IMG/VR virus record: IMGVR_UViG_3300026549_000041
Coordinates: 79,101 to 143,100 of that record
Strand: one strand, 5' to 3'
From: a virus
Lineage: Duplodnaviria > Caudoviricetes
Length of the DNA stretch: 64,000 bases
The notes under the pieces were generated by a model. It did no database searches and was not told where the DNA came from. It saw only the letters and a program-made list of their open reading frames with translations. Made by a program: the position numbers and the translations under genes. This document shows, piece after piece, positions 4,128-64,000 of the stretch (position 1 is the stretch's first letter; each line of letters opens with the position of its first letter).

Positions 4128-5255
4128 TAAATAATAATATTTCCTAAGTTTACTTGCCTTATAGAATGAGGTGAGTATGTTGAATGAAATAGATTTGAAA
4201 ATGATTACCATGAAGGAACTTGGGTTTAGTAGTGCAGAAATTGCGCAAATGTTTGGACGAAGTAAAAGTTCTGTCATTTGTGATGTACGTAATCAAACTG
4301 AACAAAAGATTGATAAAAGAATTTGGACAGTTGACGATTTGTTCTTTCATAATATTGATTCTGAAGCTAAAGCTTATATATTAGGTTTTATAATGGCTGA
4401 TGGGTGTATATATGATAAAAGATTAGAAATAACATTACAAGAGTCTGATAAATATATAGTGCAATTTTTCTTAAATGCGATGCATAGTAATAATCCATTG
4501 AGAAAAAATATTATTGAAGATAAAATATATTATAGTTTTGCGATACAAAGCGAACAGGTAATTGTAGATTTATATAAATTAAATGTTACAGAAAAAAAAT
4601 CTTTAACATTAAATCCTCCTCCAGATTATCTAATTCCTGATAATTTATACCATCATTTAGTAAGAGGATTTTTTGATGGCAATGGGAGTATATGGTTTGA
4701 TAAATCTGTTAACAATTATAAAATGAATATAGTATCTACAAAACAAGTATTAGAACATTTCAGAGATAAAATGGGATGGAGTCATAATACAATCAGACTA
4801 GCAAATAAAAAAGATGTACCTGTATATAGAATGGATTATAGTGGGAATAATTTGGTTGCAAAATATTTAAATCAGCTTTATGATGATGCATCTATTTATT
4901 TAAACCGAAAATATATTAAATATATAGATTGTAAAAATAGAAGTGGTAAGTAAATAAGGAAATATTATTAAGGGCTGTGCTTTGGTAACAAAGTATTGCG
5001 TAACTGGTGAACTTTTATCTAAAAGGTGTATATTCAACGCAATCAGTAAATACAGGAAATGGTATTGAATGAATATGCTAACAGGGGAAGTCTAAGTTTG
5101 AAAAAATACGATAATCCTGTGCCAAGCTTGTTTTATAACAAGAAGGTCAAACGACTATTATGTAGGGTGGAGATAGATACCATTCGAAGCGCCAGTTCTC
5201 CTTATATAAGGAGTGAGATATAGTCTAGCCTTTATAGAAATATAAAGTATAAGCG
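4128..5255 (+). mobile_element. group I intron dnaE-I1 (1128 nt) with LAGLIDADG ORF
   Basis: U|TAA 5' junction and terminal G; core elements ACGACTAT (~5151) and GATATAGTC (~5217). Splicing gives CT|A = Leu and restores WRHLHESRPEMP. Confidence 0.85.
4171..4953 (+). CDS. intron-encoded double-motif LAGLIDADG homing endonuclease with N-terminal HTH
   Basis: YILGFIMADGCI and LVRGFFDGNGSI motifs; ORF bracketed by an imperfect inverted repeat (4132-4158 / 4945-4970). Confidence 0.85.
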   Translation: MSMLNEIDLKMITMKELGFSSAEIAQMFGRSKSSVICDVRNQTEQKIDKRIWTVDDLFFHNIDSEAKAYILGFIMADGCIYDKRLEITLQESDKYIVQFFLNAMHSNNPLRKNIIEDKIYYSFAIQSEQVIVDLYKLNVTEKKSLTLNPPPDYLIPDNLYHHLVRGFFDGNGSIWFDKSVNNYKMNIVSTKQVLEHFRDKMGWSHNTIRLANKKDVPVYRMDYSGNNLVAKYLNQLYDDASIYLNRKYIKYIDCKNRSGK

Positions 5256-5280
5256 ACATGAAAGTAGACCAGAAATGCCT
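5256..5280 (+). CDS. dnaE: dnaE exon 2 (25-nt micro-exon, (L)HESRPEMP)
   Basis: A CAT GAA AGT AGA CCA GAA ATG CCT supplies the conserved R..MP segment preceding the catalytic DxD. Confidence 0.85.
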
Positions 5281-6309
5281 AAGTAACATTGGGCTTTGGT
5301 GATGAACCGTGCCAACGGGTGTACAGTTTTAAATTGTGCTAACGGTATCAGTTAAATAAGCAAAGATGAATACGCTGACTAAGAGAGCCTACGGTCTTTC
5401 GTAAGATAGCAGGTAATACCGTGCGAAATAATTATCTGCTCTATAATTTCTAAAAAGGAGGAAATTATATGAATGGAGATTATAGAGTAATTGAATTAAC
5501 TAATAATATCAATAATAAAAAATATATTTTAATTACACAATCAGACCTTAAAGATGAATATTTTAAAGATGAAATACTAAAAAGATTAATTACTATTGCC
5601 CTTCCAGAAAATGTATCAGAAGAAGTATTGATATCTGGTACTAAAGAAGAATGTTATCAATATTATAATCAGTATAGAAGTGATAATAGAGTTATATATA
5701 ATCCTGAATATTACAATATTCCAGAATCACAATCTGAAATTGAAGATTATCAATTATATATTGATAAAATAAATAAAGAAAATTATAAACAATGGAGGCG
5801 TAATAATAATTATAAATATCAGACAGAACTTTTTAAACAACGACAAAGTGTGTATTCTAAAGGTGAAAACAATCCAATGTATGGTAAAAAGCATTCTGAA
5901 GAATCAAAAAAGAAAATGTCTGAAAATCGTAAAGGTCTTACTTGTGGAGAAAAGAATGGTAATTATGGTAATACAGGAGAAAAAGCAAAAAATGGAAAAC
6001 CTGTTTATCAATATGAAGATTCTGATATGACCAAATTAATTCATAGATTTAATACTATGGAGCTTGCTTTAGAGTATTTAGGATTAAAAGGTCATTCAGG
6101 AATAATAAAAGCAATTAAAAATAAAGAATTATATAAAGGATATTATTGGAGCAGATAAGGAAACGTGTAACGACTATTCCGTAAGGAAGTACAATCAGAG
6201 ATAGGCACTGATTGGAAGTGTCACCACTAGCACCATTAGTGCTAGGAGAGATAGTCTAGACCCGCTGTTAAATCAGCGTTAAAGTACCAAGAAATTGGGG
6301 GTGTGACAG
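5281..6309 (+). mobile_element. group I intron dnaE-I2 (1029 nt) with GIY-YIG-like/NUMOD ORF
   Basis: CCU| paired by IGS GGGC; AACATT pairs with exon-3 GATGTT (P10); ACGACTAT (~6170) and GATAGTC (~6250) P7 elements; terminal G. Splicing gives EMP|DVDID. Confidence 0.85.
5469..6158 (+). CDS. intron-encoded degenerate GIY-YIG-like protein with NUMOD3 and NUMOD1-like DNA-binding repeats
   Basis: YRVIELTNNINNKKYILIT N-terminus, GENNPMYGKKHSEESKKKMSE (NUMOD3), KPVYQY...YKGYYW C-terminus; AAGGAGG RBS. Confidence 0.7.
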   Translation: MNGDYRVIELTNNINNKKYILITQSDLKDEYFKDEILKRLITIALPENVSEEVLISGTKEECYQYYNQYRSDNRVIYNPEYYNIPESQSEIEDYQLYIDKINKENYKQWRRNNNYKYQTELFKQRQSVYSKGENNPMYGKKHSEESKKKMSENRKGLTCGEKNGNYGNTGEKAKNGKPVYQYEDSDMTKLIHRFNTMELALEYLGLKGHSGIIKAIKNKELYKGYYWSR

Positions 6310-8862
6310 GATGTTGATATTGATTCAGAAAAATCTAAAAGACAAGCTATCATTGAAGCAACAAGAAAGAATTTTGGTGAGGACAAGGTTCTAAATATTT
6401 GTGCATTTAGAACAGAGGGAGCAAAATCAGCTATTTTAACTAGCGCTAGAGGATTGGGAGTTAGTAATGATGAAGCCCAATATATTGCTAGTTTAATTCC
6501 TTCTGTACGTGGAAAATTAACACCGCTTTCTGTAATGGTATATGGAGATGAAGATAATAAACCAAATATAGAATTTATTAATGAATGTAAGAAATATAAT
6601 AGATTGATTGAAACGGCATTAAGTATTGAAGGAATGGTTTGTGGAAGAACAATTCATGCATCGGGAGTTATCATTTTTGAAAATCCCTATTATGAATTAA
6701 ATTGTATGATGAAAGCCACTAACGGACAGCCAACAACCCAATGGGACATGGATGATTCAACATATGCTGGTGGATTAAAATATGATTATTTAACAATAAA
6801 TAATCTTGATGCTATGCACCAATGTATGAATTTGTTAGTTGAATATGGTTATATTGATTGGCAAGGTTCATTATTAAAAACTTATAATAAATATTTTCAT
6901 CCAGATGTATTAGATTATTCTTCTGAAAAAATGTGGAAAATGGCTGAAAATCATGAGATAGTAAATCTTTTCCAATTTATGACTGACGTTGGTGCTCAAG
7001 CTGTAAAAAAAATCAAACCACGTTCACTTACAGAACTTGGTGTTGCTAATGCAGTTATGCGTCTTATGAGCGGAGAATCTGGTGGGGAACAGCCTCTTGA
7101 TATATATGTTAAATATAAAAATAATATTCAAGAATGGTATGATGTAATGGATAAATACCATCTGACCTCAGAAGAAAAAGATATAATAAAAAAATATCTT
7201 GAACATGCTTCTGGTATGTCTACTATGCAAGAAGATGTTATGAATCTTTCAATGGATAAAAATATTTCTAACTATTCGATGAAAGAAGCGAATGTTCTTA
7301 GAAAACTAATTGCAAAAAAGAAAGTTGCTCTTCATAAACAGGCAGAAGAAAACTTTTATAAAAAGGGTTTAGAAAATGGAACATCTCAAAATATGTTGGA
7401 TTATGTATGGAAAGAGTGTGTTAAACCTCAGTTGCAATATTCATTTTCTCTCCCTCATATCCTTGGATATTCAACAATTGCTGTTCAAGAAATGAATATG
7501 GCATATAAATATCCTATTATTTATTGGAATTGTGCCAATCTTATTGTTGATAGTATGTCTGACGAAGAGCTTGATGGCAGCACGAATTACGGTAAAGTAG
7601 GTATTGCAATTAATAATATGATCCAATCTGGTATTAATGTAACCCCTCCTTTAATTAATGAAGCTAAGTTTGGATTTACTCCAGATGAAAAAAATAATCG
7701 TATTATCTTTGCATTAAAAGCTATGAATGGTATTGGAGATGACATCGCTCAATCAATTATTCAAAATCGTCCTTTTAAATCTATGGAAGATTTTGCTACA
7801 AGAATGATTGATACAAAGATTATTAAAAACTCACAAATGGTTAAGCTGATAAAAGGTGGTTGCTTTACTGAGATTGATTCTGAAGATAAAACAGAAACCA
7901 TGAAGTGGTATTTGTCTAAGTATTGCATTAATCCTGTTGCTAGTTTGACGCTATCTCAATTTAATAAAATTGTAGAGCATAACCTGATACCAGAAGAGTT
8001 AAATCTTGCAGTTAAAATGGTTAATTTTAAAAAATATGTTCTCGATGATGAAGGATTATACGAAAAATGGATTGACCCGACTAAACCTAAAATTCCAAAA
8101 AAAGGTTATCATGATGGACATTATATTTTAGATGAACCTTCTCAAGAATTTTTTAAAGAACATTTTACTGAAGATAGTATTGTAGATGTAGTTGGTGGAT
8201 TTTATGTGTTATCTGAAAAGAAATTCATTAAAGAAATTGATAAGAAGATAGAACCGTTAAAAGAATGGTTTAATTCAGATGATGCTATTAATAAATATAA
8301 TCAAGCTTTATTTGACGAGGCGTGGAATAAACATGCAAATGGTACAACTGATGCTTGGTCTATGGAATCTTTAACATACTATGATAAAGACCATGAATTA
8401 AAAAATACTCCTGAAGAAATATATGGTATTGTTAATTTCTTTGAACTTCCAGAAGAACCGATTGCATATGAATTTTATACAAGATATGTGGATGGTAAAC
8501 CAAAAGCAGTACCTAAATATACTATTTTTCGTATTGCAGGAACGGTTGTTCAAGCTGATAATAATCATCATTCTGTTGCATTATTAACTACACATGGACT
8601 TGTAAATATTAAATTTAGTAAAGGTCATTATGCTTTTTATAATAAAACAATTTCAGAAATTGGTGAAGATGGTAAAAAGAAGACAATTGAAGGTAGTTGG
8701 TTAAAACGTGGAAATAAATTATTAGTAAGTGGTTATAGAAGAGGAGAACAATTTATTCCTTGGATATACAATGACACAATTTATAAGCATCGAATTAATT
8801 TGATTGAAAAAATAAACGAAGACGGAACATTAGAATTAAAAGCTGAAAGAGCAAAGGTATAA
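6310..8862 (+). CDS. dnaE: DNA polymerase III alpha exon 3 (DVDID catalytic motif to C-terminus); spliced product 1302 aa
   Basis: In frame with ORF 6454..8862; HASGVII, KYDYL, LFQF, YSFSLPH and GIG (HhH) motifs. Confidence 0.9.
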   Translation, partial: DVDIDSEKSKRQAIIEATRKNFGEDKVLNICAFRTEGAKSAILTSARGLGVSNDEAQYIASLIPSVRGKLTPLSVMVYGDEDNKPNIEFINECKKYNRLIETALSIEGMVCGRTIHASGVIIFENPYYELNCMMKATNGQPTTQWDMDDSTYAGGLKYDYLTINNLDAMHQCMNLLVEYGYIDWQGSLLKTYNKYFHPDVLDYSSEKMWKMAENHEIVNLFQFMTDVGAQAVKKIKPRSLTELGVANAVMRLMSGESGGEQPLDIYVKYKNNIQEWYDVMDKYHLTSEEKDIIKKYLEHASGMSTMQEDVMNLSMDKNISNYSMKEANVLRKLIAKKKVALHKQAEENFYKKGLENGTSQNMLDYVWKECVKPQLQYSFSLPHILGYSTIAVQEMNMAYKYPIIYWNCANLIVDSMSDEELDGSTNYGKVGIAINNMIQSGINVTPPLINEAKFGFTPDEKNNRIIFALKAMNGIGDDIAQSIIQNRPFKSMEDFATRMIDTKIIKNSQMVKLIKGGCFTEIDSEDKTETMKWYLSKYCINPVASLTLSQFNKIVEHNLIPEELNLAVKMVNFKKYVLDDEGLYEKWIDPTKPKIPKKGYHDGHYILDEPSQEFFKEHFTEDSIVDVVGGFYVLSEKKFIKEIDKKIEPLKEWFNSDDAINKYNQALFDEAWNKHANGTTDAWSMESLTYYDKDHELKNTPEEIYGIVNFFELPEEPIAYEFYTRYVDGKPKAVPKYTIFRIAGTVVQADNNHHSVALLTTHGLVNIKFSKGHYAFYNKTISEIGEDGKKKTIEGSWLKRGNKLLVSGYRRGEQFIPWIYNDTIYKHRINLIEKINEDGTLELKAERAKV

Positions 8863-8863
8863 A

Positions 8864-11113: not shown

Positions 11114-11166
11114 CAAGTATATAATATAATAAAATGTAGAAAGATATAGATAAGGAGTAAATTAAT

Positions 11167-12560: not shown

Positions 12561-12561
12561 A

Positions 12562-12798: not shown

Positions 12799-12799
12799 T

Positions 12800-13205: not shown

Positions 13206-13208
13206 AAT

Positions 13209-13778: not shown

Positions 13779-13837
13779 ATATTATAAGGATTAAAAGGAT
13801 TATAAAATATTATAATTTATTAGGAGGATATGATTAA

Positions 13838-21184: not shown

Positions 21185-21193
21185 GGAGAATAT

Positions 21194-21483: not shown

Positions 21484-21500
21484 AGGAGTAAATAATATAT

Positions 21501-21752
21501 ATGGATGTAAAATTTAAAAGATTGAATGATTTAGCAAAGATTCCTACAAGAGGAAGTAAATTTTCAGCAGGATATGATTTGTATGCCGCTACTGACAAAG
21601 ATATTCAAATTCCTCCACATGCTACTGTAATGATTGGGACTGGTCTTGCAATGGAGCTTCCTGTTGGATGGTTTGGAGCAATCTTTGCAAGGTCTGGGAT
21701 TGCAACAAAAAGAGGATTGAGACCTGCTAACTGTGTTGGTGTCTGTGACGCT
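21501..21752 (+). CDS. dut: trimeric dUTPase exon 1
   Basis: SAGYDL (motif I), ARSGIA (motif II); ends GVCDA within motif III. Confidence 0.9.
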
Positions 21753-22651
21753 AAAGGAGATGATATGATTGGCACTAACACTAAAATGCGAATGGTGTGG
21801 TAAAGAATTTATTTGCTATCCTAAAAGATATAAAACGAGTAAACATCATTGTTGTTCAAAAGAATGTATGAATAATTTGCAAAAGCAAATTAGAGAAAGT
21901 AATCCTGATTATTTAAACTGCGTTTGTGATATATGTGGTAAAAAATTTCATGTTAAACCATCACAAAAAATGAGATATAAACATATATCTTGTTCAAAAG
22001 AATGCGATGCTGAATATAAAAGAATAAGAATGTCTGGAGAAAATAATCATCAATATGGTTTAAGAAAAGAATTAAACGCCTCATGGAAAGGTGGTAAAAG
22101 AGTTAGTTCTTATGGCTATTATTTAATATATATACCAGAGCATCCTTTCTGTAATGGAGATGGTTGTGTTTTTGAACATAGACTTGTTGCGGAAAAATAT
22201 TTATTAAATGATGAAAATTCAGTTATTGTAGATGGGAAAAGATATCTTAGTCCAGAATACGATGTTCATCATATAGATGAAAATAGATTAAACAATGATG
22301 TTTCAAATTTAAAAGTAATGCTAAAAGGAGAGCATGTGAGATTACATAATCTTGCTAGAAAACAAGAAAGAAATGACAAAGGTCAATTCATTGCGAAAGA
22401 ATAATTGGCGTCAGAAAATTGCGGGATTAAGCGGGAAGGCTAAGTTAACATGTATATAAAATAACATGATAATATGCTAATCCGAACCGAAGGCTATAAT
22501 TATTATAGTCAGGGGCAGAGCATAGGTAGTGAAAAGATATAATCTACCCACGAGACCGCAACTATACAAGATAATGTATAGAAAAGATATGCCGAACTTA
22601 TAGGAAACTATAAGAACTACAGGATAAAAAGCCAGTAGGATAACATAATTG
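21753..22651 (+). mobile_element. group I intron dut-I (899 nt) with HNH ORF in the P1 loop
   Basis: Exon end TGACGCU pairs with IGS GGCGTCA (~22407) with a G-U at the splice site. ATAATT pairs with exon-2 GATTAT (P10). GCATA/TATGC P7; terminal G. Splicing gives GVCDA|DYRNE. Confidence 0.88.
21769..22404 (+). CDS. intron-encoded HNH homing endonuclease with two Zn-ribbon repeats
   Basis: CEWCGK..CCSKEC and CDICGK..CSKEC repeats; EHRLVAE...VHHIDENRLNNDVSNL...H. Confidence 0.82.
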   Translation: MALTLKCEWCGKEFICYPKRYKTSKHHCCSKECMNNLQKQIRESNPDYLNCVCDICGKKFHVKPSQKMRYKHISCSKECDAEYKRIRMSGENNHQYGLRKELNASWKGGKRVSSYGYYLIYIPEHPFCNGDGCVFEHRLVAEKYLLNDENSVIVDGKRYLSPEYDVHHIDENRLNNDVSNLKVMLKGEHVRLHNLARKQERNDKGQFIAKE

Positions 22652-22837
22652 GATTATCGTAATGAATATATTGTAGCTCTTCATAATGATACTACTGAGA
22701 CAAAAACAGTTCAGGCAGGAGAGCGTATTGCCCAGTTAATTCTTCTTCCTTATCAAACAATTGATTTTAAAGAAGTGGATGAACTTGATGAGACGGAACG
22801 TGGCGTTGGCGGATTCGGATCTAGTGGAGAGAAGTAA
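22652..22837 (+). CDS. dut: dUTPase exon 2 (spliced product 145 aa)
   Basis: DYRNE, GERIAQL (motif IV), RGVGGFGSSG (motif V). Confidence 0.9.
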   Translation, partial: DYRNEYIVALHNDTTETKTVQAGERIAQLILLPYQTIDFKEVDELDETERGVGGFGSSGEK

Positions 22838-43850: not shown

Positions 43851-46800
43851 TTATCGTACAATATAACTATATTTTTTATAATTATTATTACCATTAGCTT
43901 GACCTAATGTAATCTCTTGTACCCATTTTTCAAGTTTCTTATTATTCATTAAATCATTAACAAATTTATTAGCATCTTGAACACCATTAGCAATAAATTG
44001 CATATTTACAATTGGTGGTTGTCCATTAGAATTATTACTATTTTGAATAACCCTAACATCTGGAGTAGTATATTGTTTCAAATATTTAGCTGGGTCAGTT
44101 AATGCCTGATACATATTTTTCATAGCGCTATTAGGAATTACGGAATCTCCTTTGTTAAGAGGGGTGAGGATTGCCCCATCAGATTTTCTGATAATCGCTT
44201 CGGCTTTATTACCTTCGTTTGTCCAATACAATCCACTTGTTCCTACGCCAGATGTACCAGTTTTATAACCTTTCCACTTACCATCTTTCTCAAAAGTAAG
44301 CCATCCTTTATTTGTAAACCGTCTACCATTTTTGACCATAGTGCCATCACTAGTAACATAGTAAGCACCTTTTTTAGGATTAGTAGTTACTCCATTATAA
44401 TCAATCCAAGCATTAGTAAGCATTGCTTTTGTTCTAGGGTCGAAGTAATACCAATCGGTGCCATTTCCCCATCTAAGTTCAGCCCAACCACTAGCGGCTT
44501 GTCCTTCAGAATTAAAATGATACCATTTACCACCAATTTGTTGCCAACCAGTAAGCATTACACCAGAACTATCCATATAATAAGTCTTTCCAGACTCTGA
44601 ATAGAATCCAGTTTTCATAGCACCTTTACTATCTAAAAGATACCATTTACCATCAATTTTCTGCCATCCTGTTCTTGCAGAACCATCAGAATTCAAATAA
44701 TACCATTTACCATTAGCGTATTGCCATCCATTGGATAACATAGCACCACTCTTGTCCATGACATAAGTTTTGCCACCTACTGTTTGTGCTCCAGTAAGCA
44801 TTTCGCCTTTGCTATTGGTTAAATACCATTTATTATTATCTTTTATCCATCCTGTTTGGGCAGCCCCATCAGAATTCAGATAGTACCACTTGCCATTAGA
44901 GTAATGCCATCCATTAGAAAGCATTGCTCCCGAAGAATCCATGACATAAGTTTTACCACCAATTTGTTGAGCGCCAGTTTGCATGACACCCTGACCGTTC
45001 ATATAATACCATTTATTATTGTCATATAACCAGCCAGTTTTCGCAGAACCATCAGAGTTGAGATAATACCATTTACCTCCAGATTGTTGCCAACCACCTG
45101 AAAGCATAACACCATTATTACCCATGACATAAGTTTTGCCCTTAATTGTCTGAGCACCAGTTTGCATTTGACCTTGGTTATTCATATAATACCATTGCCC
45201 ATTAAGATTTTGCCAACCAGTCTGAATTTCACCTTGATTATTCATATAATAGCGTTTGCCATTTATAGTCTGCCAACCAGTTTGAGCAGCACCAGAGCTA
45301 TCTAAATGATATTGCTTACCATCAGCGGTAATAAACTGCGAACCTGTTAATTGTTTACCTTTTTCAAATCTATATTTTTTACCATTCTTTTCAGCCCATC
45401 CAGTATAATTCTTGTCCTGAGTACCATCAGACCTGAAATATCCTGTAACAGTATTGCCATTTTCATCTCTGTAAGTTTGAATGTTGCCATCATGCCTTAC
45501 AGCTTCGGTCATAGTATCTTTGGCTGCTTCTTCATTAGTTTCTTTTTGCACACGTTGATAATAATCTACTATCTTTTTAACATTATCTGCTATAGATGCG
45601 ACATTATTATTTTCAAATTGGCTACTAAAATAACTAACAAAAGAACGGCTCATATCATCAAGAGTAGATTTTAAAGTATCAGAAGGAGTATAACCATAAG
45701 AAGAAGCCAAATTATTAATTGTATCTTTAATAATTCCTCTACTTGTATTAGCAGTATCAATTGCCTCTCTTACAACACCTTCTATATCTTTTAATTTATT
45801 CTCTAAGAATTCTTCAAAACTTTCTTCAAATTTTGAAAGCATATCCTTAGTTTCGGATAAACGTCTATCATCTTGTGTTTCTTTAAGACTTTGCCTTGCT
45901 TCTTCAATTTGATTCTTTAATTGCTGTCTCTTAGTTGCAGTTTCTTCAGAATCATCATTTTGAATTGCCCTATACTGCTTTTCAAGTTTGTTTAATTCTT
46001 TTTGTTGGTCTGCAACTTTCTTAGCGTAATCAATTTGGTCTTTTTGTGTTTCAAGTAATTCCTCATAATCATCTATAAGTTTCTTTACATAATCAATTTG
46101 TTTCTTAATACCTTTTTCGGTAACATCAACAATTGAATCTTTCATCTTCTTAGCACCAGAAGCAGCATCTTGTTGTGCTTCTTTTAACTCTTTAAGTTTA
46201 TCAACTAATATTTGATTATAAGGGTCTTTTGCTAAGTCTTCTTGTACTTGATTTATTTCTTTTTGATATTCTTGAACTTCAGCAAAATACACATCATATT
46301 CATGAGCTAACAATGCAAGAGCAGTAGTACCTTGAGCAGTTATATCACCTTGTTCGGTGAACAAATCATCTTCGTTCATAAGGTCATATAAAAATTCAAG
46401 TTCATTTACAACACCATCAATACTATCATGTATTTTATCCCAACGAGTCCAATCAACCTCATTAAGAGCTTTATCGTAACTAATTAAATTATTTTCTGCT
46501 TCAGCAATAGCTGCGCATACATCTGCAATGGCAGATTCCATTTCAGACCATGCTTCAGAACCATATTCAATATAACCAGAATTTAAAGCTTGCTTTTCTC
46601 GTGTCTTCAACATTTGAAGTTCTTGATTTAATTTAACAAGTTTCTTTTGTTCTTGGTCATATTGTCTGTAAATAAGAATTTTAGAACTTAATTTTCCAGC
46701 CTCTTCAAGTCTATCAATAAAAGTATCTTGAACATCAATTTCATGCTGAATAGCTTCAACCATATTATCATAATATGTTTGAGTATTTTCAAACAATTGC

Positions 46801-47439
46801 TGATATAATTCGCCACGCTTATTAGTAAGGTCAATTAATGCTTGCTCACTCGCTACGGCTTTGTTGTAATAATTCTGATATTCCTGAATTTTATCCCATA
46901 AATCGCTATCGGTTACATCTTCAATACGGAAAGCACCATCTCTAATTTTCTGTTTCCAAGATTCGCTCAGATTAATAGAATTGGCTTTATTAATATATGT
47001 CTGATATGCTTTACGTTGGTCAGATATTTCTTGTGTAACAAGTCTTAAATTATCTATAATTGAATCATTTCTATCTTCCCAAGTATTATAAGTGCTACCT
47101 ATAATCTTATCTAAATCAGAAATTCTCGCTTCAATTCTGCCAATCAGAATCTCAACTTCATCTAATGTATTCTTAGTTTCTTTTGCATCTTTAGAAGAAG
47201 AGTTTCCTCCACCAGAGCCACCAGAGCCACCAGAACCTCTTGAACCGCCTGAACTACCACTAGAACCTCTTGAAGAACCTCCCATACCAGTAGAAGTCTT
47301 GCTAGGTCTAAGGGCACCAGAAGACGAACCATGAGAATAAGCAGTACCATTTGCAAACCCGACTAAATGTCCACGACCTTTATTAGAAGTAACATAACCA
47401 TTTTCTAATAATTCTTTACTTTGTTTATGATTAAAAACA
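43851..47439 (-). CDS. tape measure protein exon 4 (coiled coil + cell-wall-binding repeats)
   Basis: In frame with ORF 43851..47285 and open up to VFNHKQSKELLENG; joins exon 3 as KGDI|VFNH (AT|T). Confidence 0.82.
44270..45480 (-). repeat. tandem ~20-aa choline/cell-wall-binding (CW_binding-type) repeats inside TMP
   Basis: Repeated GWQ..GGKWYYLNSDG.A.TG units. Confidence 0.8.
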
Positions 47440-47871
47440 CTTTGTATTTATTTTAGTTCGCTACACTAAAACGACTGATAAACAGTCCTCTATATTTCTA
47501 CAGAGAATAGACTATATCTTTATGTAAATATTATATTCATGTTTAATTCTTCATTTATTTCATTATAAAATTTTGATTTGGTAAAATCATCCATATTATC
47601 CTCCGATTAATATATTTAAATATAATATTTACATAATCACCTTTTCCAACTACCAATCGCTTGTAGTTGTACTTCCTTGCGGAATAGTCGTTGAGCGTTT
47701 TCCTATTCGGAACTTCGCTGCTGATTGCCCATTGTTACATTTATATATTTTTTAAACATTCACATTTAGATTTATTTCATTCTTATGTTGTAGTATATAT
47801 AACTTTAGGGGTTTCCAGCAATTAAATGATTTATTTTATATACATCACTGTATATAGACACTATTTTATTA
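47440..47871 (-). mobile_element. group I intron TMP-I3 (432 nt) with HEG remnant
   Basis: GACAU| pairs with IGS GTGTC; AAAATA pairs with exon TGTTTT (P10); CAACGACTAT / AAGATATAGTC core; terminal G. Confidence 0.85.
47520..47594 (-). pseudogene. 24-codon remnant ORF in an intron peripheral loop
   Basis: GGAGG RBS then MDDFTKSKFYNEINEELNMNIIFT*; enclosed by a 17-bp inverted repeat TATGTAAATATTATATT. Confidence 0.5.
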
Positions 47872-50800
47872 ATGTCACCCTTTTTAAGATTTACAAATTC
47901 AGCACCATCATCACCAACAGTAAACCAATTACCATCACGGACAACTATCTCAGTTCCTAACTCACCTGTAAGGGCAGTTTGGTCATCGGGAAGTCCCCAT
48001 TTACCACCAGCATATGCATGATTAGAAACTACAGAGCCTTTAACAAATGCAGTACCATATGCATGAGCTGTACCATTTGCAAAATGCGCCCTATAATTTG
48101 ATGCTAATTCATTAGCTTTGTTAATAGCTGATTGAATACCAGATTTAAGAGCACTTAACCCAGAAGAAGAAAAATTAGCAACAACACTTACAGTTTTACT
48201 TTTAACAGAATCAATTGCACTTTTCATAGCTTGCGCATCATTAATTACTTGATTTTTACCTGCAAGCATAACACTAGGAGTGGCTTTTTTATTATCTAAT
48301 TCTTTTGTCTGTTTATTTACATCATCGCTACCTTTTTTAAATTCTTTTGAATCCATCCCAACTTCGGGTTTAGGATTTTGTTTATCAATTTTCTTATTCT
48401 CTTCTTGAACATGTTTTGCACCTTTATCAAAAGGAGAAGTGTCCATTGACGTAGTTACAACCTGATTAACTTGTTCTTCTGATATGGTTTTATTAATTTG
48501 TGTATTTGTTGTTGTGGTATCTTTAGGCTTGGGAGTATCGCCAGTTGTTTTTACATTTATATGAAGCTCTCCCTTTTTGGCTAATTCTAATAATTCTTCA
48601 CCAGTTGCGTCTGGTTCAAGCCCCCATTTTTGTTTAACTTCTTCAGGTAAATTAGCAATTGTGTTTAATTCTTCTTTAAACTCTTCATCAGCATCCCAAT
48701 TAAAATGAATATCTTTATGTTGAGCTGCATAATCTAATTTAGAATTAATATCATCAACAACTTTTTCAGCTGCCATAAATTGGTCAACTGTAATCGAATC
48801 ACCACTAATATTTGATTTATTTAATAAATTTACTCTATACTGTAATTGTGCTAATAATTGGTCTAAATATTGAACTTGAGTATCATCTACATTTGGACGT
48901 ATTTCTTTTAATGTGTTTATTTTTTCTTGTAAATAATCAACATTGTTTAATAACATGGGGTCAATAGTAAACTGTTCTGAAAAATCAGTTTTCCCCGCTT
49001 CTTTTGAATAAGAAGACAATTTATTTACAATATCATTAATATTCTTTTTAGATGTTTCTAATTCTTTAGAATCAAATACTTTAAAATCAAATATTTTTCC
49101 TTCAACAAATTCACGTTTCTTCGCAGCCATAAAATTTAATAAATCAGCCACTTGTTGAAGTTTTTCTGTTTTTACTTTAGGGTCTAGACTTGTGTCTTCA
49201 GCAAGAGATTGTTGATAACCCATGAGCTTCTGCATTGCATCATCAACTTCCCTTTCACTTTTAGGGTCTAAATTAATTTTTAATTCAGTACCAGTAGTTT
49301 CTTCTAATGCTTCTTTAGCAGAAATAGCCTTTTCTTTTAATTGCTCTAAAGAGAACAAAGGCTGGTCTAAATGAATTTCAAAGCCAGCATCAGCAGCTGC
49401 TCTTAAAATAGAATGGACACTTTCAATATCCATGCCTAACATTTCGGCTATTTGATAATCACCATTTTCAGTGAAATCGAACCAACCTTCTTCAAGATTG
49501 ACAAATTCTTTTCCAACTTCTTTTTGCTTATTTTGAATAGCATCAAAGAAATTCCAAACACCTTGAGAAGTAGTTTTACCATTAGCATCAACCGTAAAGA
49601 AATCTGCTATAGAATAACCACCAGTTCCTTCTATGTCTTTTGTAACTTCATCAAATTTTTCTTTTATTTTTTCAGCAGAAGAAGTCCAAGCATCCCAATC
49701 TTCATTTTCATCATTAAAAATTAAATCAATCCAACTTCTAGTCTTTTCACCAGCCCAACCTCGTTCAAGCTCATCTTTAACAGCGTCATATCCACTATAA
49801 ACGCTATTATACATTTCACGTTCGCCCTCACTATTCTGTTTAGACAACCATGTTTGATAAGCTGAATTAGCATTATTAAATGTCATTAATTGTTCATTTA
49901 ATTTATCAATATTATCTTGAATAGCCTGTCGCTGTTGTATAAAACCAGAGGTGTCTTCACCAGCTGCTTTAGCCTGAAGATATCCTTCTTGTAATTTATC
50001 TAATGCTTGATATTGTTCGTACATAGAAGAAGCATAATCAGCCTTGACCATAGCTTCTTGTTCTTGTCTTAATAAATATGCCCCTTGAGTATTTAAATGA
50101 TAACCATTTGCAGTTCTTTCTAATACCGAATCAAGATTATCACCAAAAGCAGCTCGTAATTCAGTTAATGTTTGTTCTGTTAAACCTGTACCTTTTGCAG
50201 ATTCAGCAAGAGCAGTATTTAATGTATTAAGAACTCCTATGGCACTTTCGACAGAAGAAGAAAACGCATTATATGAGTCAGAAGCCATATATGCAACATC
50301 AGCTGCATCTCCGTGAACAATTCCAGCAGTTACTAATGCATTAATTAAATTATCTGCATCAGCAGTAGTCCATCCCATTGCATCCATTAATGCCTTTAAT
50401 GCATCAGCATATTTTCCACTTGCATAAGTATTATCTTTAAGTGTCGCCTGAATATCAACTTTATCTGGATTTAATTTATATAATTTTTCGGCGGCTTTAT
50501 AAGCTTTCTTTTGTTCTTTGGTTAATTTACTTTGGGCTTTAGCATTATCTTTAAGAGTCTTTTTATCAGTCCCTCCAAATAATCCTTCTTTTTCTTCAGG
50601 CACAGGGATATCTTTAAATAATTCAACTGTATCTCTAAATTTATTTTTAGCGTCAACTAAAGAAGTATCTATTTTATCAAATAGAAGAGCGAATTGTCCA
50701 TTATCGCCAACTTTAAGAAAATCATTTTTAGCTTTAGTCGCTTCATCAAAGGCTTTACGTGCTTCATTAATTTTTTGAGTATCACCAGTAATATAAGCAT

Positions 50801-52613
50801 CTTCAAGATTAGAAACAGAAGATTGATAATTCTTATAAATGTCATAACCTTTAGTATCATTACCAGCCAAATCTAATTCTAAACCTTTAAGAGCTGTTGC
50901 TTCATATTTATCAACAACTTCATAAGCTTTACTAATCTGTTCCTCTATTTTTGCAATTTGCTTATTAAGTGCTTCAAGAGTATCTCTATCTCTATACTCT
51001 GCTTTTAATTCTTCAAGAGCTTTTTTGGTATTTTCTAAGGCATTAATACCATCAGAAGCAGTTCCTTTTACAGAAGCATTAAAAGTACCCATTCCAGCAG
51101 CTTGAATTCGAAATCCATTTTTTAATAATTCATCTGTTATTGCTTTATCTAAATTTGCATTTCCAGTATTATTTAAACCAATATTATAAGACCTATTATT
51201 TTTATTATATTCTTGTTCAGCTACTTGGAAACCTTCATAATCTTTAAAATATTGGTCTTGCGCTTCTTTTTGACTAATTGAATTTAATAATCCAACTTGT
51301 TCTTCAAGTTTACCATTAATTAAATCAACACCTTGAGCCGCTGTACCATACTGTTCTGTAATTGACTTTTGAATATCTAATATTTGTTGTTTAACATTTA
51401 TTGTTTCTTGTTCAGATAAATCTCCAGAATCTAATTGTGCTTTTAATTGCTTGTAAGATTCTATTTGTTGAGATGTAGCTTCTTGTTGAGTTTTAATATT
51501 TTCAGCTGTTGCTTTCGCATCTGCAAATACAGATTCTCTATGTGCATCATATGCTTTTTTAGCAGCAAATAATACAACAGCCGCTGCACCTATTGCTAAT
51601 GGAACAGCTCCAATAGTGCTTACTAATCCTGTAAAAGCACCTTTTAACAAATTAATTCCACCAGAAGCTTTAGCAAAAATTCCACCAGATTCAGCAACTT
51701 GTTCCGCTTCTTCTGCCATACCTAATTGAACATAGGCTAACGCTTGTTCTTCAACAGATAATGTTTCTGCTTCATTTGATGCAGTTTTAGCGACAGAAGA
51801 AGCAATACCTGTTGTATCAACTGCTGATTCTGCAAGTTCAGCCCCAGTAGCTTCAATACTCGCTTCTGTTTTGGCTTTTTCAGAAACAGTTTTTGCAGCA
51901 TTAATTGCAGTAGCAGTTTCTTCGATTACATTTAAACCTTCTTGAGCCTTAGCCATTTCTTCAGTAGCTTTTTGGGCTTCATTTAAACCATTAGCCCAAT
52001 CTAAAAATTGAGTAATTATCCCTTTTCCAGACCTAGCTTTTGTAATAATATTTAAATAAGGAAGCATCAATGCTAAAGTTGTAGGAAGTACTCCTATAGC
52101 ATTTGCAAAATTAACAACTGCTTTAGCAGCATCAATAAAGAAATTAATAATTTCTCTATTAGCAGCATTCGCCCACATTTCTTGCCAAGCGTTGGTGAGT
52201 TGAGCAAGGTGACCCGATATACTTTGTACATATTTATCGTTTTCCCGCATAGCAGAGCCATTAGCTTCTTGAGAAGATTTATATGCTGCCTCTAAAACAT
52301 CAGGAGATTGGAATATACTAGCAGCAACATTTGCTCTTGTTTTTCCTGCAACAGTTTCCAAAAGCAAGTTAGCATTATTTCTACCTAATTGTTTGTCTGT
52401 ATCAACAATTTCTTGATATATTTGAGCAATACCAAGCATTATTTCATATGTTGATTTATAATTTCCATTATCATTTAAAATATCAAAACCTTTAAATCCA
52501 TTAGAAGCAACTGCTGTTGCTTCTTTAATTGTATCTCTAAGTTTTGATTGTGTTGTAATAAGACTGTCAGTATCTTCACCTAGTTCTTCAAGTTCTTCTT
52601 TTGCACTTTTTGT
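47872..52613 (-). CDS. tape measure protein exon 3
   Basis: TKSAKEELEELGED...GNYKSTYEIM...LLETVAGKTRAN TMP core motifs; ends ...NLKKGD-I. Confidence 0.85.
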
Positions 52614-54079
52614 CTTTCTGTTACTTTCAACTTTTAGTTTACTGACCATAATAATATTATGGCGATTAGTCATTTCTGGCTAATTCTCACATTTCATATT
52701 AATTGGGTTATAGTGTGAGTTCGGACTGTATATTCATCCTATTTATCCAATAGGAGATAGCTCAATTTATATAATTACTTATATAAATATTACAGTCTCT
52801 ACGGAAGTAGTGTATATTATTTATATGTTTAAAATTTCTTTTATATTTTTATTATGCTCTATGTATATTTTTTTAGGAATCCAATAATACCCATTTGCAT
52901 AATATCTTTTAGTATGAATACACGAAGCAATATTTCCACTTAAAATACCAGTTTTTCTTTCTGCTTCTTTATAATTCACATAACTGTTTATATAATTATG
53001 ATTTACAGAAAATTGCATAACTTCAACATAATTACATTTACTATAATTCTTAGGATAAAATAATCTATTAGAATATAAAGCATCATAAATACGATGTGGA
53101 GAAATTTCTAACAAATTAGCTATTTCAGTTACTTTATTTCCCTCATTTAATAACGATTGAATTTTATGAACATCTAATTTATTCTTGTCCTCTTGAATAA
53201 CCCAATCAGGTATTTCTTCTAAATCTGGAAAAAACAACTTACAATAATCCAATACGCTAATTTTGTCAATTTTATAGTCATAAAATTTATACCCTTTATT
53301 AATCCAATAATCTTTTTTTATTTTATCTCTTTCTTTCTGAGCTTCCCTTTCATGAAACTGCCCTTGAATTTCAATAGCAATTTTTAATCTATGATTAACA
53401 ATATCGGTACACATAATAGCATTTGTATTTGGATTAATACAAGAGGGGTCTTCTAGAATAGTATCAGGATACTTGTTCATAAATAATTGTTTTAATACAA
53501 TTGCATGTAAAGATTCTTTTCGTCCATCACAAATAGGACAAATTAATCCTCTATGAGAATCCTTTTCCGAATCTCTAGAACCTCTTAAGGCATTAAAAAA
53601 AGACATATGAATTATTTCTCCGCATCTTTTACAGCGGAAATCTAGTATTTTGTTTCTGGTATAACTATCATCAACCTTAGACAATAATTCAAAATTATTT
53701 TCCTTCTCATAGATTAAATATTGTTTAATATTTTCTTCTAAATAAGGGTTACTCTTATGAAACCACATACGAGAAGAGTAATTGGTTCTCTTTAACAAAA
53801 TTTCTCCTGTTACAAATGCTTTATAAATTCCATCAGAGATTGCTAATTTTTGTTTTGTATTTTTATATTCATTTTTAGGTGTTAAAATTTTAATACCAAA
53901 TTGATTTGAAAAATCAACCATATCTTCAAATTTTCTTTTAAACATATAACACTACCTTTCCACGGTCTTGTCGCCCCAATACGATTTTAACCGTTATAGC
54001 TATTTTCTAACATAACATAATTATATAATATATACATGTTAATGTCCATAGATTGCTCTATGTTCGGGCACATCTATTT
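52614..54079 (-). mobile_element. group I intron TMP-I2 (1466 nt) with PD-(D/E)XK ORF
   Basis: CGGGU| pairs with IGS GCCCG; GAGACTGTA / TACAGTC P7; 3' end GTAACAGAAAG|. Splicing gives RLTG|TKSAKEEL. Confidence 0.85.
52821..53945 (-). CDS. intron-encoded putative homing endonuclease (Zn-ribbon + Vsr-like PD-(D/E)XK + NUMOD1-like)
   Basis: CKRCG..CPICD, TDIVNHRLKIAIEIQGQFH...RDKIKK, C-terminal EAERKTGI...IASCI..ANGYYW. Confidence 0.7.
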   Translation of the reverse strand: MFKRKFEDMVDFSNQFGIKILTPKNEYKNTKQKLAISDGIYKAFVTGEILLKRTNYSSRMWFHKSNPYLEENIKQYLIYEKENNFELLSKVDDSYTRNKILDFRCKRCGEIIHMSFFNALRGSRDSEKDSHRGLICPICDGRKESLHAIVLKQLFMNKYPDTILEDPSCINPNTNAIMCTDIVNHRLKIAIEIQGQFHEREAQKERDKIKKDYWINKGYKFYDYKIDKISVLDYCKLFFPDLEEIPDWVIQEDKNKLDVHKIQSLLNEGNKVTEIANLLEISPHRIYDALYSNRLFYPKNYSKCNYVEVMQFSVNHNYINSYVNYKEAERKTGILSGNIASCIHTKRYYANGYYWIPKKIYIEHNKNIKEILNI

Positions 54080-54427: not shown

Positions 54428-55452
54428 CTTTTTGTTACTCTTTTTATTTAAAAATAAAAAGGGATAGGTCATTTCTGCCTATCTCTGCAATTTTTTGTTT
54501 TATTCGATTATATTTGCAGAACAGACCATACCTTCATCCTAAGAAGGATGCTCCCATACGCTTAATTGTTACCTTTCAAGCTGTGGTCGTTACGGGACTT
54601 ATATATTTATTAATCATATTAATTATATCCTCTTTTGTTTTGTAATACGGAATTCTCAATAATTCAATATTATGGCTAAATGCATATTCATTTTTTATCT
54701 TATCATTTTCTTTAGTAACTCCAAACTTTTCTTCACCGCCCCAACCTTTTATTGGTTCAAAATGATGAAGCCCATCATATTCAATTAATAAATTATAATC
54801 ATATATATAAAAATCATAAGATAATAAATTAGTACCATTTTTATTTTTACAATCTGGAAATCTTTTCTGATATTCGAATTTAATATTTAACATAGTTAAA
54901 TAATCAAATATAAATTCTTCCCATTGGCTATGACGTTTACAACCACAAGAAGTGGTTTGTCCGCTTGTTAAATTTGTTCCATATGTATCGAACTCTTGTC
55001 CACAATCGCATTTACAGTGCCATTTAATATGTCCTTGATTATCTCGAATTCCTGTATCTTCAATAACCATAACATTATAAAATTTTTTACCTGTTAAATC
55101 TATTTTCTTGTGTTTATGACCTACATTTTTTATATGTTTAGTAGCACCAGATCTTAATGCATCTGTTCGAATAATATATTCTTTTCCATCTATTCCTAAA
55201 CATCTGCAATAAGCTCTCATATCTTTTCCGCATCTTTTATAAATCATTTCTAAAACGGTAAAATCACCATAAGTTTCACCAATTATATTTAAAGTTCTTT
55301 TAATTTTTTATCCCACCTTTCATGGGATTAATTAATATAAATAATAATATATACATTACCCACGGAGTTGCCTATCTCTAGGGTTTCTCCGTTTTGAGAG
55401 AGTTTTCATCTGTATATTACTATACAGCGGAGCATAGAACATTTGTTCCCAT
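54428..55452 (-). mobile_element. group I intron TMP-I1 (1025 nt) with PD-(D/E)XK ORF
   Basis: GGU| 5' junction; ACGACCA / ATGGTC P7; 3' end GTAACAAAAAG|. Splicing gives FMRLG|ETLKEA. Confidence 0.82.
54576..55304 (-). CDS. intron-encoded putative homing endonuclease (CxCxC repeats + Vsr/DUF559-like nuclease), probable ATT start
   Basis: WHCKCDCG..L.SG.TTSCGC and YDFYI..YNLLIEYDGLHH...NDKIKN...LLRIPY. The frame stays open 19 codons upstream of ATG 55247, to an ATT spaced 9 nt from AAAGGTG. Confidence 0.72.
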   Translation of the reverse strand: MKRTLNIIGETYGDFTVLEMIYKRCGKDMRAYCRCLGIDGKEYIIRTDALRSGATKHIKNVGHKHKKIDLTGKKFYNVMVIEDTGIRDNQGHIKWHCKCDCGQEFDTYGTNLTSGQTTSCGCKRHSQWEEFIFDYLTMLNIKFEYQKRFPDCKNKNGTNLLSYDFYIYDYNLLIEYDGLHHFEPIKGWGGEEKFGVTKENDKIKNEYAFSHNIELLRIPYYKTKEDIINMINKYISPVTTTA

Positions 55453-62799: not shown

Positions 62800-62821
62800 C
62801 CTTTTCCTCCTTACAAAATAC

Positions 62822-62890
62822 AAAAAAAGGGCATAACCCACGAACAGTGAGTTACACCCTATTGTTTTTGCTTTAAATAAATCACTGTTC
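62822..62890 (-). promoter_or_regulatory. terminator with overlapping alternative pairing (attenuator-like RNA)
   Basis: AGGGTGTAACTCAC-TGTTC-GTGGGTTATGCCCT + T-run; upstream GAACAGTGA is complementary to TCACTGTTC in the hairpin. Confidence 0.55.
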
Positions 62891-62902
62891 AATTAATACT
62901 AA

Positions 62903-63337
62903 TTACTTACCATGTTTATGAGCAACAGCTTTAGGATACACTTTCTTTGACTCTGCTTGAAGATTAGATTTAAATTGAGATACAGTTTCATTTGCCATAT
63001 CCTTAACTACATCTTGTTCAATTTCTTCATCTTTTTTTTCAATCACTTCTTCATTAATATCTTTAGAATCAATTTCTCCCATAATTTCTTTATAGGCTTT
63101 TCCATAACTTCCTTTATATTGCATATGTCTGGAAGTGTCTTTGCTCTCAATAGCTTGTTTAACTTCTTCTTTAGAAATTTTGTTATAAATAAAATCTGTC
63201 AGTAAAGATGTAATATCTTTACAATCTTCACTACAATAACTAAACATCCATACAGGCTTATCTTGAAAAGCGCTGCATGAATTACAGTACTCGTATACCT
63301 TGCCACATAAAATGCAGCTCCTATCATATCTCGCCAT
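62903..63337 (-). CDS. hypothetical protein with N-terminal Cys-rich Zn-binding domain
   Basis: CILCGK.YEYCNSC...YCSEDC; AAGGAG RBS. Confidence 0.65.
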   Translation of the reverse strand: MARYDRSCILCGKVYEYCNSCSAFQDKPVWMFSYCSEDCKDITSLLTDFIYNKISKEEVKQAIESKDTSRHMQYKGSYGKAYKEIMGEIDSKDINEEVIEKKDEEIEQDVVKDMANETVSQFKSNLQAESKKVYPKAVAHKHGK

Positions 63338-63378
63338 ATCTGTTTGTCTCCTTTTATATTTATTTTTTAAGAAAAAAT

Positions 63379-63402
63379 ATGGTGCGTTTTGAGGCGCACC
63401 AT
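63379..63402 (-). terminator. intrinsic terminator after putative major tail gene
   Basis: ATGGTGCG/CGCACCAT stem followed by ATTTTTT on the - strand. Confidence 0.7.
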
Positions 63403-63443
63403 ACCTGATATTATTAGTCAATTATATTTAACTAAAAATTAAA

Positions 63444-63509
63444 TTAATCTTCCTCTGCATCTTCTGTAGCATAGTAAACCTGATACAGAGTCTTATCAAC
63501 GGAACAGTA
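63444..63509 (-). CDS. putative major tail protein, last exon (YCSVDKTLYQVYYATEDAEED*)
   Basis: Continues LQVD| in frame after intron removal; missed by the ORF track. Confidence 0.7.
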   Translation of the reverse strand, partial: YCSVDKTLYQVYYATEDAEED

Positions 63510-63830
63510 CAATTATACCCTCGGTTTCCCGATATTTATTAGGGGTTTAGAGCACATCATCATCTTGTATTAATAAACAAGAGCAAGGCACTTCAGATAA
63601 AAGAATTTCACTTTTATCCTACGGACTTCATCATCTCATTAAGATGGTATGTCCTGCTCGTTTGACCTTCAAGAATATTACTATTCAAGCTTGGCACTGG
63701 ATTGCCATTTTAAAGGTTTCCCAGTTAGCATAATTTCTAATCGTCATTTCCTACGATTCCTAAACGTAAATTACACACCATATATTTATATGTTCACCTT
63801 GTTTAACGTGGACAACTTGTCCCGAATTTT
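63510..63830 (-). mobile_element. ORF-less group I intron (321 nt) in putative major tail gene
   Basis: GTGGAU| pairs with IGS GTCCAC; GCTAAC..AATCC.GTGCCAAGCTTG..GAAGGTCAAACG core resembles dnaE-I1; GAGCA/TGCTC P7; terminal G. Confidence 0.82.
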
Positions 63831-63932
63831 ATCCACCTGTAAATCACCTGTAAAATCAATAGAGGTGTCATCACCACCCAGCGCAATAGTAGTCTCAGGA
63901 CTAGGCTGGAAGGAAGGAAGCACAATATAAAC
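63831..63932 (-). CDS. putative major tail protein, internal exon (VYIVLPSFQPSPETTIALGGDDTSIDFTGDLQVD)
   Basis: 102-nt open exon bounded by G| and U| junctions. Tail-tube identity is inferred from position and a beta-rich C-terminus. Confidence 0.7.
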
Positions 63933-64000
63933 CATTCTGTTACTTTCCCTGTGCAAAGGGTACTGACCATTTCTGGCGAGTAGGAGTTTCCACCTACTTC
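63933..64000 (-). mobile_element. 3' end of another group I intron (partial, continues beyond window)
   Basis: GCCAGAAATG...GTCAGTA...AAAGTAACAGAATG| closely matches the 3' end of TMP-I2. Confidence 0.7.

Follow-up and report, generated by a model that had tools for sequence, protein, structure and literature searches.

Eight insertions in replication and tail genes

The DNA analysed here, hereafter the window, comprises the last 64 kb (positions 79101-143100) of a 143,100-nucleotide (nt) IMG/VR virus record from an uncultured phage (IMGVR_UViG_3300026549_000041, also labelled G000; CheckV completeness, 96%). Its genes lie on the plus strand up to ~27.2 kb, where replication and nucleotide metabolism functions are encoded, and on the minus strand thereafter, where the tail module is located. 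Four of these genes, namely, those for the replicative DNA polymerase (dnaE), the dUTPase (dut), the tape-measure protein (TMP) and a tail-tube protein, are interrupted by 2, 1, 3 and 2 insertions, respectively, which resemble group I introns; seven of the eight are present in full, and the remaining one is truncated by the end of the contig (Table 1). The sole nucleotide match in the phage collection is Fusobacterium phage Fnu1 (74 nt at 86.5% identity, inside the second dnaE insertion), and the relatives of the TMP are large siphophages, e.g., Sundance, Tsamsa and Lactococcus 949.

The borders of the insertions were set by nucleotide and protein alignment to IMG/VR relatives devoid of each insertion: L110-L112 for dnaE, G001 for dut and the third TMP insertion, L008-L010 for the first two TMP insertions (with G001 also available for the first), and a set of 74 related loci for the tail-tube gene. 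Each of the eight insertions is absent from homologous alleles, and its removal restores the reading frame. All eight had been proposed in a preliminary description of this stretch made from the letters alone, and position 4128, given there as the start, is the exact first base of the first dnaE insertion. The restored frames that it predicted are open and align without gaps to intron-less alleles, with the conserved motifs re-formed, and homologues are contiguous across the predicted junctions.

Table 1. Exons and introns of the four split genes and additional insertions in the same record. Positions refer to the window unless preceded by "record"; the sign ^ marks a junction; ORF, open reading frame.
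Feature	Position	Strand	Observations	ORF within the intron	Rfam RF00028 match
dnaE exon 1	2797..4127	+	PHP domain and start of Pol III alpha domain (Pfam PHP, DNA_pol3_alpha; PDB DnaE alignment)		
dnaE intron 1 (dnaE-I1), 1128 nt	4128..5255	+	ribozyme core 4954-5255	4171-4953 in the P1 loop (L1); LAGLIDADG-type (E 3.5e-45 to phrog_4645; Pfam score under the cut-off)	53.5 bits at 5004-5247
dnaE micro-exon, 25 nt	5256..5280	+	encodes (L)HESRPEMP just before the catalytic DVDID motif		
dnaE intron 2 (dnaE-I2), 1029 nt	5281..6309	+		5469-6158 between the P6 region and J6/7; NUMOD3 41.6 bits, phrog_314; GIY-YIG-type	
dnaE exon 3	6310..8862	+	begins at DVDID; Pfam finger and HHH domains		
dut exon 1	21501..21752	+	intron-less homologue in G001		
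dut intron, 899 nt	21753..22651	+	core 22402-22651	21769-22401 in the P1 loop (L1); Pfam HNH_3 25.5 bits (cut-off 24.8)	
dut exon 2	22652..22837	+	comparison with G001; spliced frame		
TMP exon 1, 1804 codons	55453..60864	-	one open frame across ...STADFMRLG^E.L in L008-L010		
TMP intron 1 (TMP-I1), 1025 nt	54428..55452	-		54576-55247 in L6, into J6/7-P7; phrog_559 and phrog_9084 homing endonucleases	
TMP exon 2, 116 codons	54080..54427	-	TP901-type TMP core; phrog_4211 669-784; tblastn with Sundance and Tsamsa TMPs		
TMP intron 2 (TMP-I2), 1466 nt	52614..54079	-		52821-53945 (374 aa) in L6; Pfam NUMOD1 23.7 (cut-off 22.8)	
TMP exon 3	47872..52613	-	phrog_4211 positions 773-1637; spliced frame open		
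TMP intron 3 (TMP-I3), 432 nt	47440..47871	-	endonuclease gene absent	24 codons in L8, behind GGAGG	50.7 bits at 47488-47881
TMP exon 4	43851..47439	-	phrog_4211 1826-2541; endolysin phrogs; endolysin-like C-terminal repeats		
Tail-tube intron 1 (tail-I1), last 68 nt	63933..64000	-	cut by record end	none	
Full copy of tail-I1	record 2653-3013				36.9 bits
Tail-tube exon 2, 34 codons	63831..63932	-	matches intron-less L024 and ~60 other loci		
Tail-tube intron 2 (tail-I2), 321 nt	63510..63830	-	99.4% identical to the G001 copy	none	24.6 bits, E 0.0016 (small search)
Tail-tube exon 3, 21 codons and stop	63444..63509	-	YCSVDKTLYQVYYATED... matches intron-less homologues		
Additional insertion	record 5737-7268	-	relative to G001	LAGLIDADG	
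Additional insertion	record 9985-11148	-	relative to G001; splits a phrog_4088 gene	GIY-YIG	
Additional insertion	record 25115-26021	-	relative to G001	HNH	Rfam group I, 38 bits

The insertions have group I intron features

As stated in the preliminary description, all eight insertions end in G (omega G), and all seven complete ones are preceded by U and contain a P7 pairing. Furthermore, the helices of each complete insertion follow the canonical order P3, P4-P6, P7, 3' strand of P3, P8, 3' strand of P7 and P9, and P1 is present too; the helices were placed by inspection and their complementarity was checked with a script. Hairpins P7.1 and P7.2 were found in dnaE-I2, TMP-I3 and tail-I2, and P7.1 in the dut intron. 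Such extra hairpins between P7 and the 3' strand of P3 are a trait of subgroup IA (see also PMC2504315).

Covariation was assessed with RNAalifold on two alignments. In the first, made up of the 3' half of each of TMP-I1, TMP-I2, tail-I1 (as two copies) and a TMP intron of G001, P7, P7.1, P8, P9 and P9.1 were recovered, with compensatory changes in 22 of the 41 pairs. In the second, composed of the cores of dnaE-I1, tail-I2, the dut intron and three other introns of the record, all 5 pairs of P7 formed in 6 of 6 rows, with double changes in dut and tail-I2, and the P9 hairpin was recovered as well. The program arrived unprompted at the P7 variants GACUA/UAGUC, GACCA/UGGUC, GACUG/CAGUC, GAGCA/UGCUC and GCAUA/UAUGC, with 5 of 5 pairs in every row of both alignments and substitutions in either strand. 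The J6/7-P7 motif AACGACYA occurs six times (1.2 expected), and four of these occurrences are in predicted introns on the correct strand. An additional P7-like pair at 33898/33868 (minus strand) was judged to be due to chance, its halves being only 20 nt apart and inside a long ORF.

The splice-site helix P1 with a terminal U.G pair varies from 6 bp (dut, tail-I2) through 5 bp (TMP-I2, TMP-I3) to 4 bp (dnaE-I2, TMP-I1), and in dnaE-I1 consists of 3+3 bp around a bulge. The guide lies at intron nt 11-23 in the five introns without an ORF close to the 5' end (11-14 in dnaE-I2, 11-15 in TMP-I2 and TMP-I3, 18-23 in tail-I2, 20-23 in TMP-I1) and directly after the ORF in dut and dnaE-I1. The earlier claim that most of the introns have clear P1/P10 pairings holds for dut (12/12), dnaE-I2 and TMP-I3 (11/12 at intron nt 5); for tail-I2 and TMP-I2, P1 alone is clear, and for TMP-I1 and dnaE-I1 the pairings are weak. 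The Infernal search with group I models, which had been suggested as a check, was similarly divided: two introns score above the RF00028 gathering score of 50 bits, two (counting the full copy of tail-I1) score below it, and four yield no match.

Several of these results weigh against the group I assignment. The four introns without an Rfam match (dnaE-I2, dut, TMP-I1 and TMP-I2) remained so even when searched as short pieces, a run on eleven such pieces recognising three introns; the 250-nt dut core is contiguous, and its miss cannot be attributed to the inserted ORF. P1 is short in TMP-I1 and bulge-interrupted in dnaE-I1, and a shuffle test in which the whole intron was searched for 12 contiguous nt of P10+P1 guide, and which has low power in AT-rich introns of ~1 kb, was significant only for dut. 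Finally, the helices beyond P7, P8 and P9, including P3 and P4-P6, are manual assignments checked for complementarity only. As to Rfam, dnaE-I2, TMP-I1 and TMP-I2 are interrupted by ORFs of 670-1125 nt, a distance that the model is unable to span. Moreover, a search of record positions 5001-14000 and 23001-29000 returned nothing, though another search, of whole genomes, scored 38 bits there, and a whole-window run by E-value lost even the group I match seen at the gathering threshold. Because runs thus missed introns matched in others, absence of an Rfam match is weak evidence here. Overall, we estimate at roughly 0.88 the probability that the window carries eight group I introns, subgroup IA-like, seven complete and one cut, that lie in four genes of a Fnu1-like siphophage.

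Twin introns flank a micro-exon in dnaE

In dnaE, U4127 is the last base of exon 1 and G6310 the first of exon 3, which opens with DVDID, the catalytic Asp pair according to alignment with Taq DnaE. Joined directly, these two exons would lack ~8 codons. The intron-less L110, L111 and L112 read ...PYWRHLHESRPEMPDVDIDSE, that is, exon 1 followed by the counterpart of 5256-5280 (22-24 of 25 nt identical, same peptide) and exon 3; thus, two introns flank a 25-nt micro-exon. The spliced frame is open, yielding a DnaE of 1302 aa that aligns without gaps to the uninterrupted DnaE of G001. One string, CCAGAAAUG, is common to the micro-exon and to sequence close to the 3' ends of TMP-I1, TMP-I2 and tail-I1. 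Interpretation of the micro-exon as an intron hairpin was rejected, given that it is present in intron-less alleles and that CCAGAAAUG falls in different hairpins elsewhere.

The last base of dnaE-I1 is G5255, and a 13-bp helix (4132-4144 with 4958-4970) shuts off its ORF loop. P1 pairs CCU with GGG at 4972-4974, including the U.G pair (3 bp, with 3 more past a bulge). As the guide we prefer GGG(C)UGU at 4972-4978, which provides the U.G pair and adjoins the ORF-closing helix; the candidates GAGGUG (4168-4173) and AGGUGU (~5025) were set aside, since with them either a U-A pair would fall at the splice site or that site would move by 1 nt. In dnaE-I2, the guide AACAUU+GGGC at 5285-5294 forms a 6-bp P10 with the 3' exon and a 4-bp P1 (U.G) with the 5' exon, and P3 (GGUGAU/GUCACC), P7.1, P7.2, P8 and P9 were also located. 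The two dnaE introns share the P7 sequence GACUA/UAGUC, and 40 nt of dnaE-I2 are 85% identical to TMP-I3. At position -1 of both dnaE-I2 and TMP-I2, alleles with the intron have a synonymous U where intron-less alleles have A, G or C.

The twin dnaE introns are retained in independent metagenome contigs (L108/L109). In L108, the ribozyme parts are 96.8-99.3% and the exons 97% identical to those in the window, but the LAGLIDADG gene only 80.7%. Because the ribozyme parts are near-identical and the endonuclease gene is diverged, the comparison suggests that the ribozyme RNA is constrained and that the LAGLIDADG gene within dnaE-I1, which may have been exchanged or be fast-evolving, turns over. 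We found no description of a group I intron in a phage dnaE gene within the literature searched.

The dut intron

In G001, dut is uninterrupted and shorter by exactly 899 nt, and the junction ...VCDA^DYRNEY of the window corresponds to VCDFDYKGEY. Splicing would yield a dUTPase of 145 aa that terminates with the motif RGVGGFGSSG. The guide, 12 contiguous nt at 22401-22412, pairs with the ligated exons at all 12 positions, a fit matched by 1 of 500 shuffles. The core contains P3, P6, P7.1, P8 and P9 (GAAA loop), and P7 pairs GCAUA (22520-22524) with UAUGC (22588-22592), in register with five other introns. A search for homologues via the HNH protein found nine loci, none with a homologous RNA core, and this intron is consequently devoid of covariation from direct homologues.

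A tape-measure gene in four exons

The spliced TMP comprises 4696 aa with no internal stops. The flanks of TMP-I1 are contiguous in L008, L009, L010 and G001, with the frame open across the site; the TMP-I2 site is free of insertion in L008-L010, and the residues of the Sundance TMP continue from ...RLRG into the next exon; and at the TMP-I3 site G001 is uninterrupted, the length difference being 432 nt.

Helices P2, P3, P4, P5 (GAGA loop), P7 (GACCA/UGGUC), P8 and P9 were placed in TMP-I1; P1 (CGGGU/GCCCG), P2, P3 (54002-53998 with 52762-52758), P4, P6, P7 (GACUG/CAGUC), P8 and P9 in TMP-I2; and P1 (GACAU/GUGUC), P3, P4, P7, P7.1, P7.2, P8 and P9 in TMP-I3. After removal of its ORF, TMP-I2 is 72% identical to the ORF-less tail-I1, itself recognised by Rfam (3' half, BLAST E 7e-12).

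At 4696 aa, the TMP (43851-60864, minus strand) is very long even among large siphophages, and its last exon encodes endolysin-like repeat domains. A gene for a RuvC-like Holliday-junction resolvase (62018-62557, minus strand) is located inside the tail module, between the tail-tube gene and the TMP gene.

The tail-tube gene and the record ends

About 60 of the 74 related loci are continuous across both sites in the tail-tube gene (...TLRA^VYIVLPSF...GDLQ(T/V)D^YCS...EDEE), which fixes the 3' end of tail-I1 at G63933, directly before VYIVLPSF, and the extent of tail-I2 at 63830-63510. The 68 nt of tail-I1 match G001, as well as the 3' end of the 361-nt intron found complete at record 2653-3013, with 100% identity. 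Tail-I2 has a 6-bp P1 (GUGGAU/GUCCAC, U.G included), and its P7 (GAGCA/UGCUC) differs from those of the other introns by compensatory changes. The frame after splicing is ~260 aa.

The only family match of the gene product is phrog_2729 ('virion structural protein'); Pfam and PDB sequence searches returned nothing. However, the predicted structure of an intron-less homologue (mean pLDDT 77) matches the SPR tube protein (8ygm_A, E 9e-12, TM 0.64) as well as the major tail proteins of YSD1 and Chi. Based on this predicted fold, we assign the gene as that of a siphophage major tail (tube) protein; its location upstream of the tape-measure gene is as expected.

The two record ends (window 62745-64000 and record 1-2720) are diverged duplicates with 89-96% identity. 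At the record start, the copy contains an additional 433-aa endonuclease-like ORF (record 660-1958), located between the tail-tube gene and the gene that follows, and its second tail-tube intron is a different one, inserted after ...IDFTG, which is four codons upstream of the window site. Given that these duplicates are diverged and differ in content, the contig apparently fuses sequences from two strain variants of a genome with circular permutation or terminal redundancy.

Endonuclease genes and the proposed splicing pathway

Five of the eight introns carry endonuclease ORFs; tail-I1, tail-I2 and TMP-I3 (with its 24 codons) do not. Judging from their families, the encoded proteins would be active endonucleases, which presumably drive the spread of the introns into intron-less alleles during mixed infections.

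In the textbook group I pathway, the internal guide would pair with the last bases of the exon, with a U.G wobble at the cut site, and an external guanosine bound at P7 would attack after the splice-site U. The terminal G of the intron would then replace the external guanosine, and the exons would be ligated, restoring the frames of 1302 (DnaE), 145 (Dut), 4696 (TMP) and ~260 aa (tail tube). The RNAs are thus predicted, from their sequences, to self-splice. With the frames of these genes broken, both replication and tail assembly would be expected to depend on splicing.

Alternative explanations

All eight insertions could derive from introns of which some, most plausibly those in dut, TMP-I1, TMP-I2 and dnaE-I2, no longer self-splice, being decayed or helped by a protein; the host gene would then be inactive or reliant on a maturase-like factor. 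The four introns without an Rfam match, the short P1 of TMP-I1 and the remnant 24-codon ORF in TMP-I3, which shows that decay of endonuclease genes does occur, are consistent with this. Yet the genes affected are essential ones (for the replicative polymerase, the tape measure and the tail tube), in which the exons stay in frame with motifs restored exactly, the core pairings are intact and covarying, and the twin arrangement in dnaE persists in independent metagenome contigs with ribozyme parts 97-99% identical. We therefore consider loss of self-splicing improbable.

Far less probable still is that free-standing endonuclease cassettes have split the genes, with each piece translated on its own and the resulting proteins assembling with no RNA splicing involved, as in some T4-like split genes. 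The genome does contain free-standing endonuclease genes, e.g., record ORF 660-1958, and five insertions carry endonuclease genes, but three insertions have none, at the junctions the downstream pieces have neither a start codon nor a ribosome site, one piece measures 25 nt and another 21 codons, and structured non-coding RNA of 250-400 nt that shows group I features is contained in each insertion. We give the least credence to inteins, group II introns or an assembly artefact. The insertions are not inteins because in each of them the host frame runs into stop codons 1-22 codons after the start, and group II introns are contradicted by the lack of any reverse-transcriptase ORF, the only Rfam group II match being a chance-level one of 45 nt elsewhere in the window. 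An artefact might be suspected from the diverged duplicate ends of the record, where the contig mixes variants, but the same introns are present in independent contigs from other samples (L108/L109, G001). Group I introns thus remain the preferred explanation for all eight insertions.

Further introns in the genome and its relatives

Outside the window, comparison with G001 uncovered three additional precise insertions, all on the minus strand and endonuclease-bearing (Table 1), two of which contain stretches resembling TMP-I3. Because these come on top of the eight in the window, the 143-kb genome contains at least eleven introns. Among the relatives, G004, G005 and G006 have 3-6 Rfam group I matches each. 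Thus, the earlier suggestion that this phage lineage is rich in introns is supported, with the relatives carrying different intron sets.

Some of the introns share cores at different sites. A core homologous to dnaE-I2 is present in dnaE of G001, ~1.1 kb downstream, and in nrdD of Fnu1. L008-L010 and G001 have a TMP intron after ...KLNEVG, ~160 nt upstream of the TMP-I2 site, and this intron, TMP-I2 and tail-I1 share a core with ~70% identity in the 3' halves, with differing guides. In the Fnu1 record (NC_055035, gp058-gp060, record 51137-54813), nrdD is annotated as two coding sequences around a GIY-YIG gene, and the unannotated gap, which is the site of the match to dnaE-I2, is probably a group I intron. 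The expectation that standard annotation fragments such genes is borne out by this case, and gene callers will list such essential genes as fragments.

A tentative explanation, which we regard as possible but rather unlikely, is that one or two ribozyme families move to new sites in this clade, beyond homing to cognate sites; it fits the shared cores at different sites with differing guides. If true, the clade would be a natural system for watching ectopic transposition of group I introns, the route being reverse splicing or illegitimate endonuclease-driven repair. Equally tentatively, the order in which the introns around the 25-nt dnaE micro-exon are spliced could gate DnaE production. Because the relatives differ in their intron sets, the clade is in any case suited to the study of intron gain, loss and site switching.

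Relation to known phage introns

The preliminary description held that phage introns reside mostly in nucleotide-metabolism or polymerase genes, a view that is dated, given the published introns in genes for tape-measure, tail-tube, terminase and capsid proteins (PMC2504315, PMC3706429). In 2008, group I introns were described in TMP (IVS1, IVS2, IVS3a/b), tail-tube and terminase genes of Bacillus cereus-group prophages (Tourasse and Kolsto, PMC2504315). As in the present case, they belong to subgroup IA and occupy tape-measure genes, at up to three sites each, and tail-tube genes; GIY-YIG or HNH genes are present in some and have been lost from others; and related cores are fitted to different sites via P1, with early stops past the 5' site. 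Unlike the prophage introns, those described here number 8 in 64 kb and at least 11 in one 143-kb genome and are spread over dnaE, dut and tail genes; no sequence relationship between the two groups is detectable, though they were not compared directly.

A survey of Bastillevirinae (Nucleic Acids Research 2025, PMC11878797) reported 45 introns in 52 genomes, with a single-genome maximum of six (its Table 3) and only partial Rfam matches when an endonuclease gene occupies a loop. There, as here, large Firmicutes phage genomes can carry several group I introns, with as many as three in one polymerase gene, but the polymerase concerned is of family A rather than DnaE, and the introns described here are denser and mostly in tail genes. 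In cluster J mycobacteriophages (Pope et al. 2013, PMC3706429), introns interrupt capsid and tail genes, and splicing was demonstrated by reverse transcription PCR (RT-PCR). These introns, too, affect virion structural genes of large siphophages, were found via intron-less relatives, and have a U ending the exon and a G ending the intron; however, they number 1-2 per genome and are RT-PCR-proven, whereas ours are known from sequence.

Fnu1 nrdD shares the dnaE-I2-like stretch with the window but is a different host gene, and its intron is unannotated in the record. Landthaler and Shub are said to have described, in 1999, three group I introns that self-splice, in orf142 of Staphylococcus phage Twort, with exon skipping. 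Three introns in one phage gene is a shared feature, and close spacing raises the same question of splicing order and exon skipping; the host genes differ, and here a 25-nt micro-exon is located at a polymerase catalytic motif.

Published examples of introns in tape-measure, tail-tube and capsid genes go back to 2008; the present set is therefore an unusually dense fresh example of a well-known kind of selfish element and reveals no new mechanism. It does provide, at base resolution, a very high intron load for a phage, the maximum in the Bastillevirinae survey being six, together with two notable arrangements, the micro-exon at the catalytic site of the replicative polymerase and the assembly of the TMP gene from four exons.

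Other features of the window

The 311-nt gap at 21182-21500 was considered as a candidate intron and rejected, because it holds two small membrane-protein ORFs. An Rfam tRNA match (34.2 bits, model positions 6-65) is located at 27308-27369 on the plus strand, at the switch of gene strands; ARAGORN predicted no tRNA there. Finally, a NUMOD4-HNH-HTH endonuclease module at 11167-12393 (plus strand) lies in frame inside a phrog_6721 protein, possibly ThyX-like; it contains no stop codon and leaves no space for an intron core. At the corresponding position, G001 has a different, uninterrupted ThyX-like gene.

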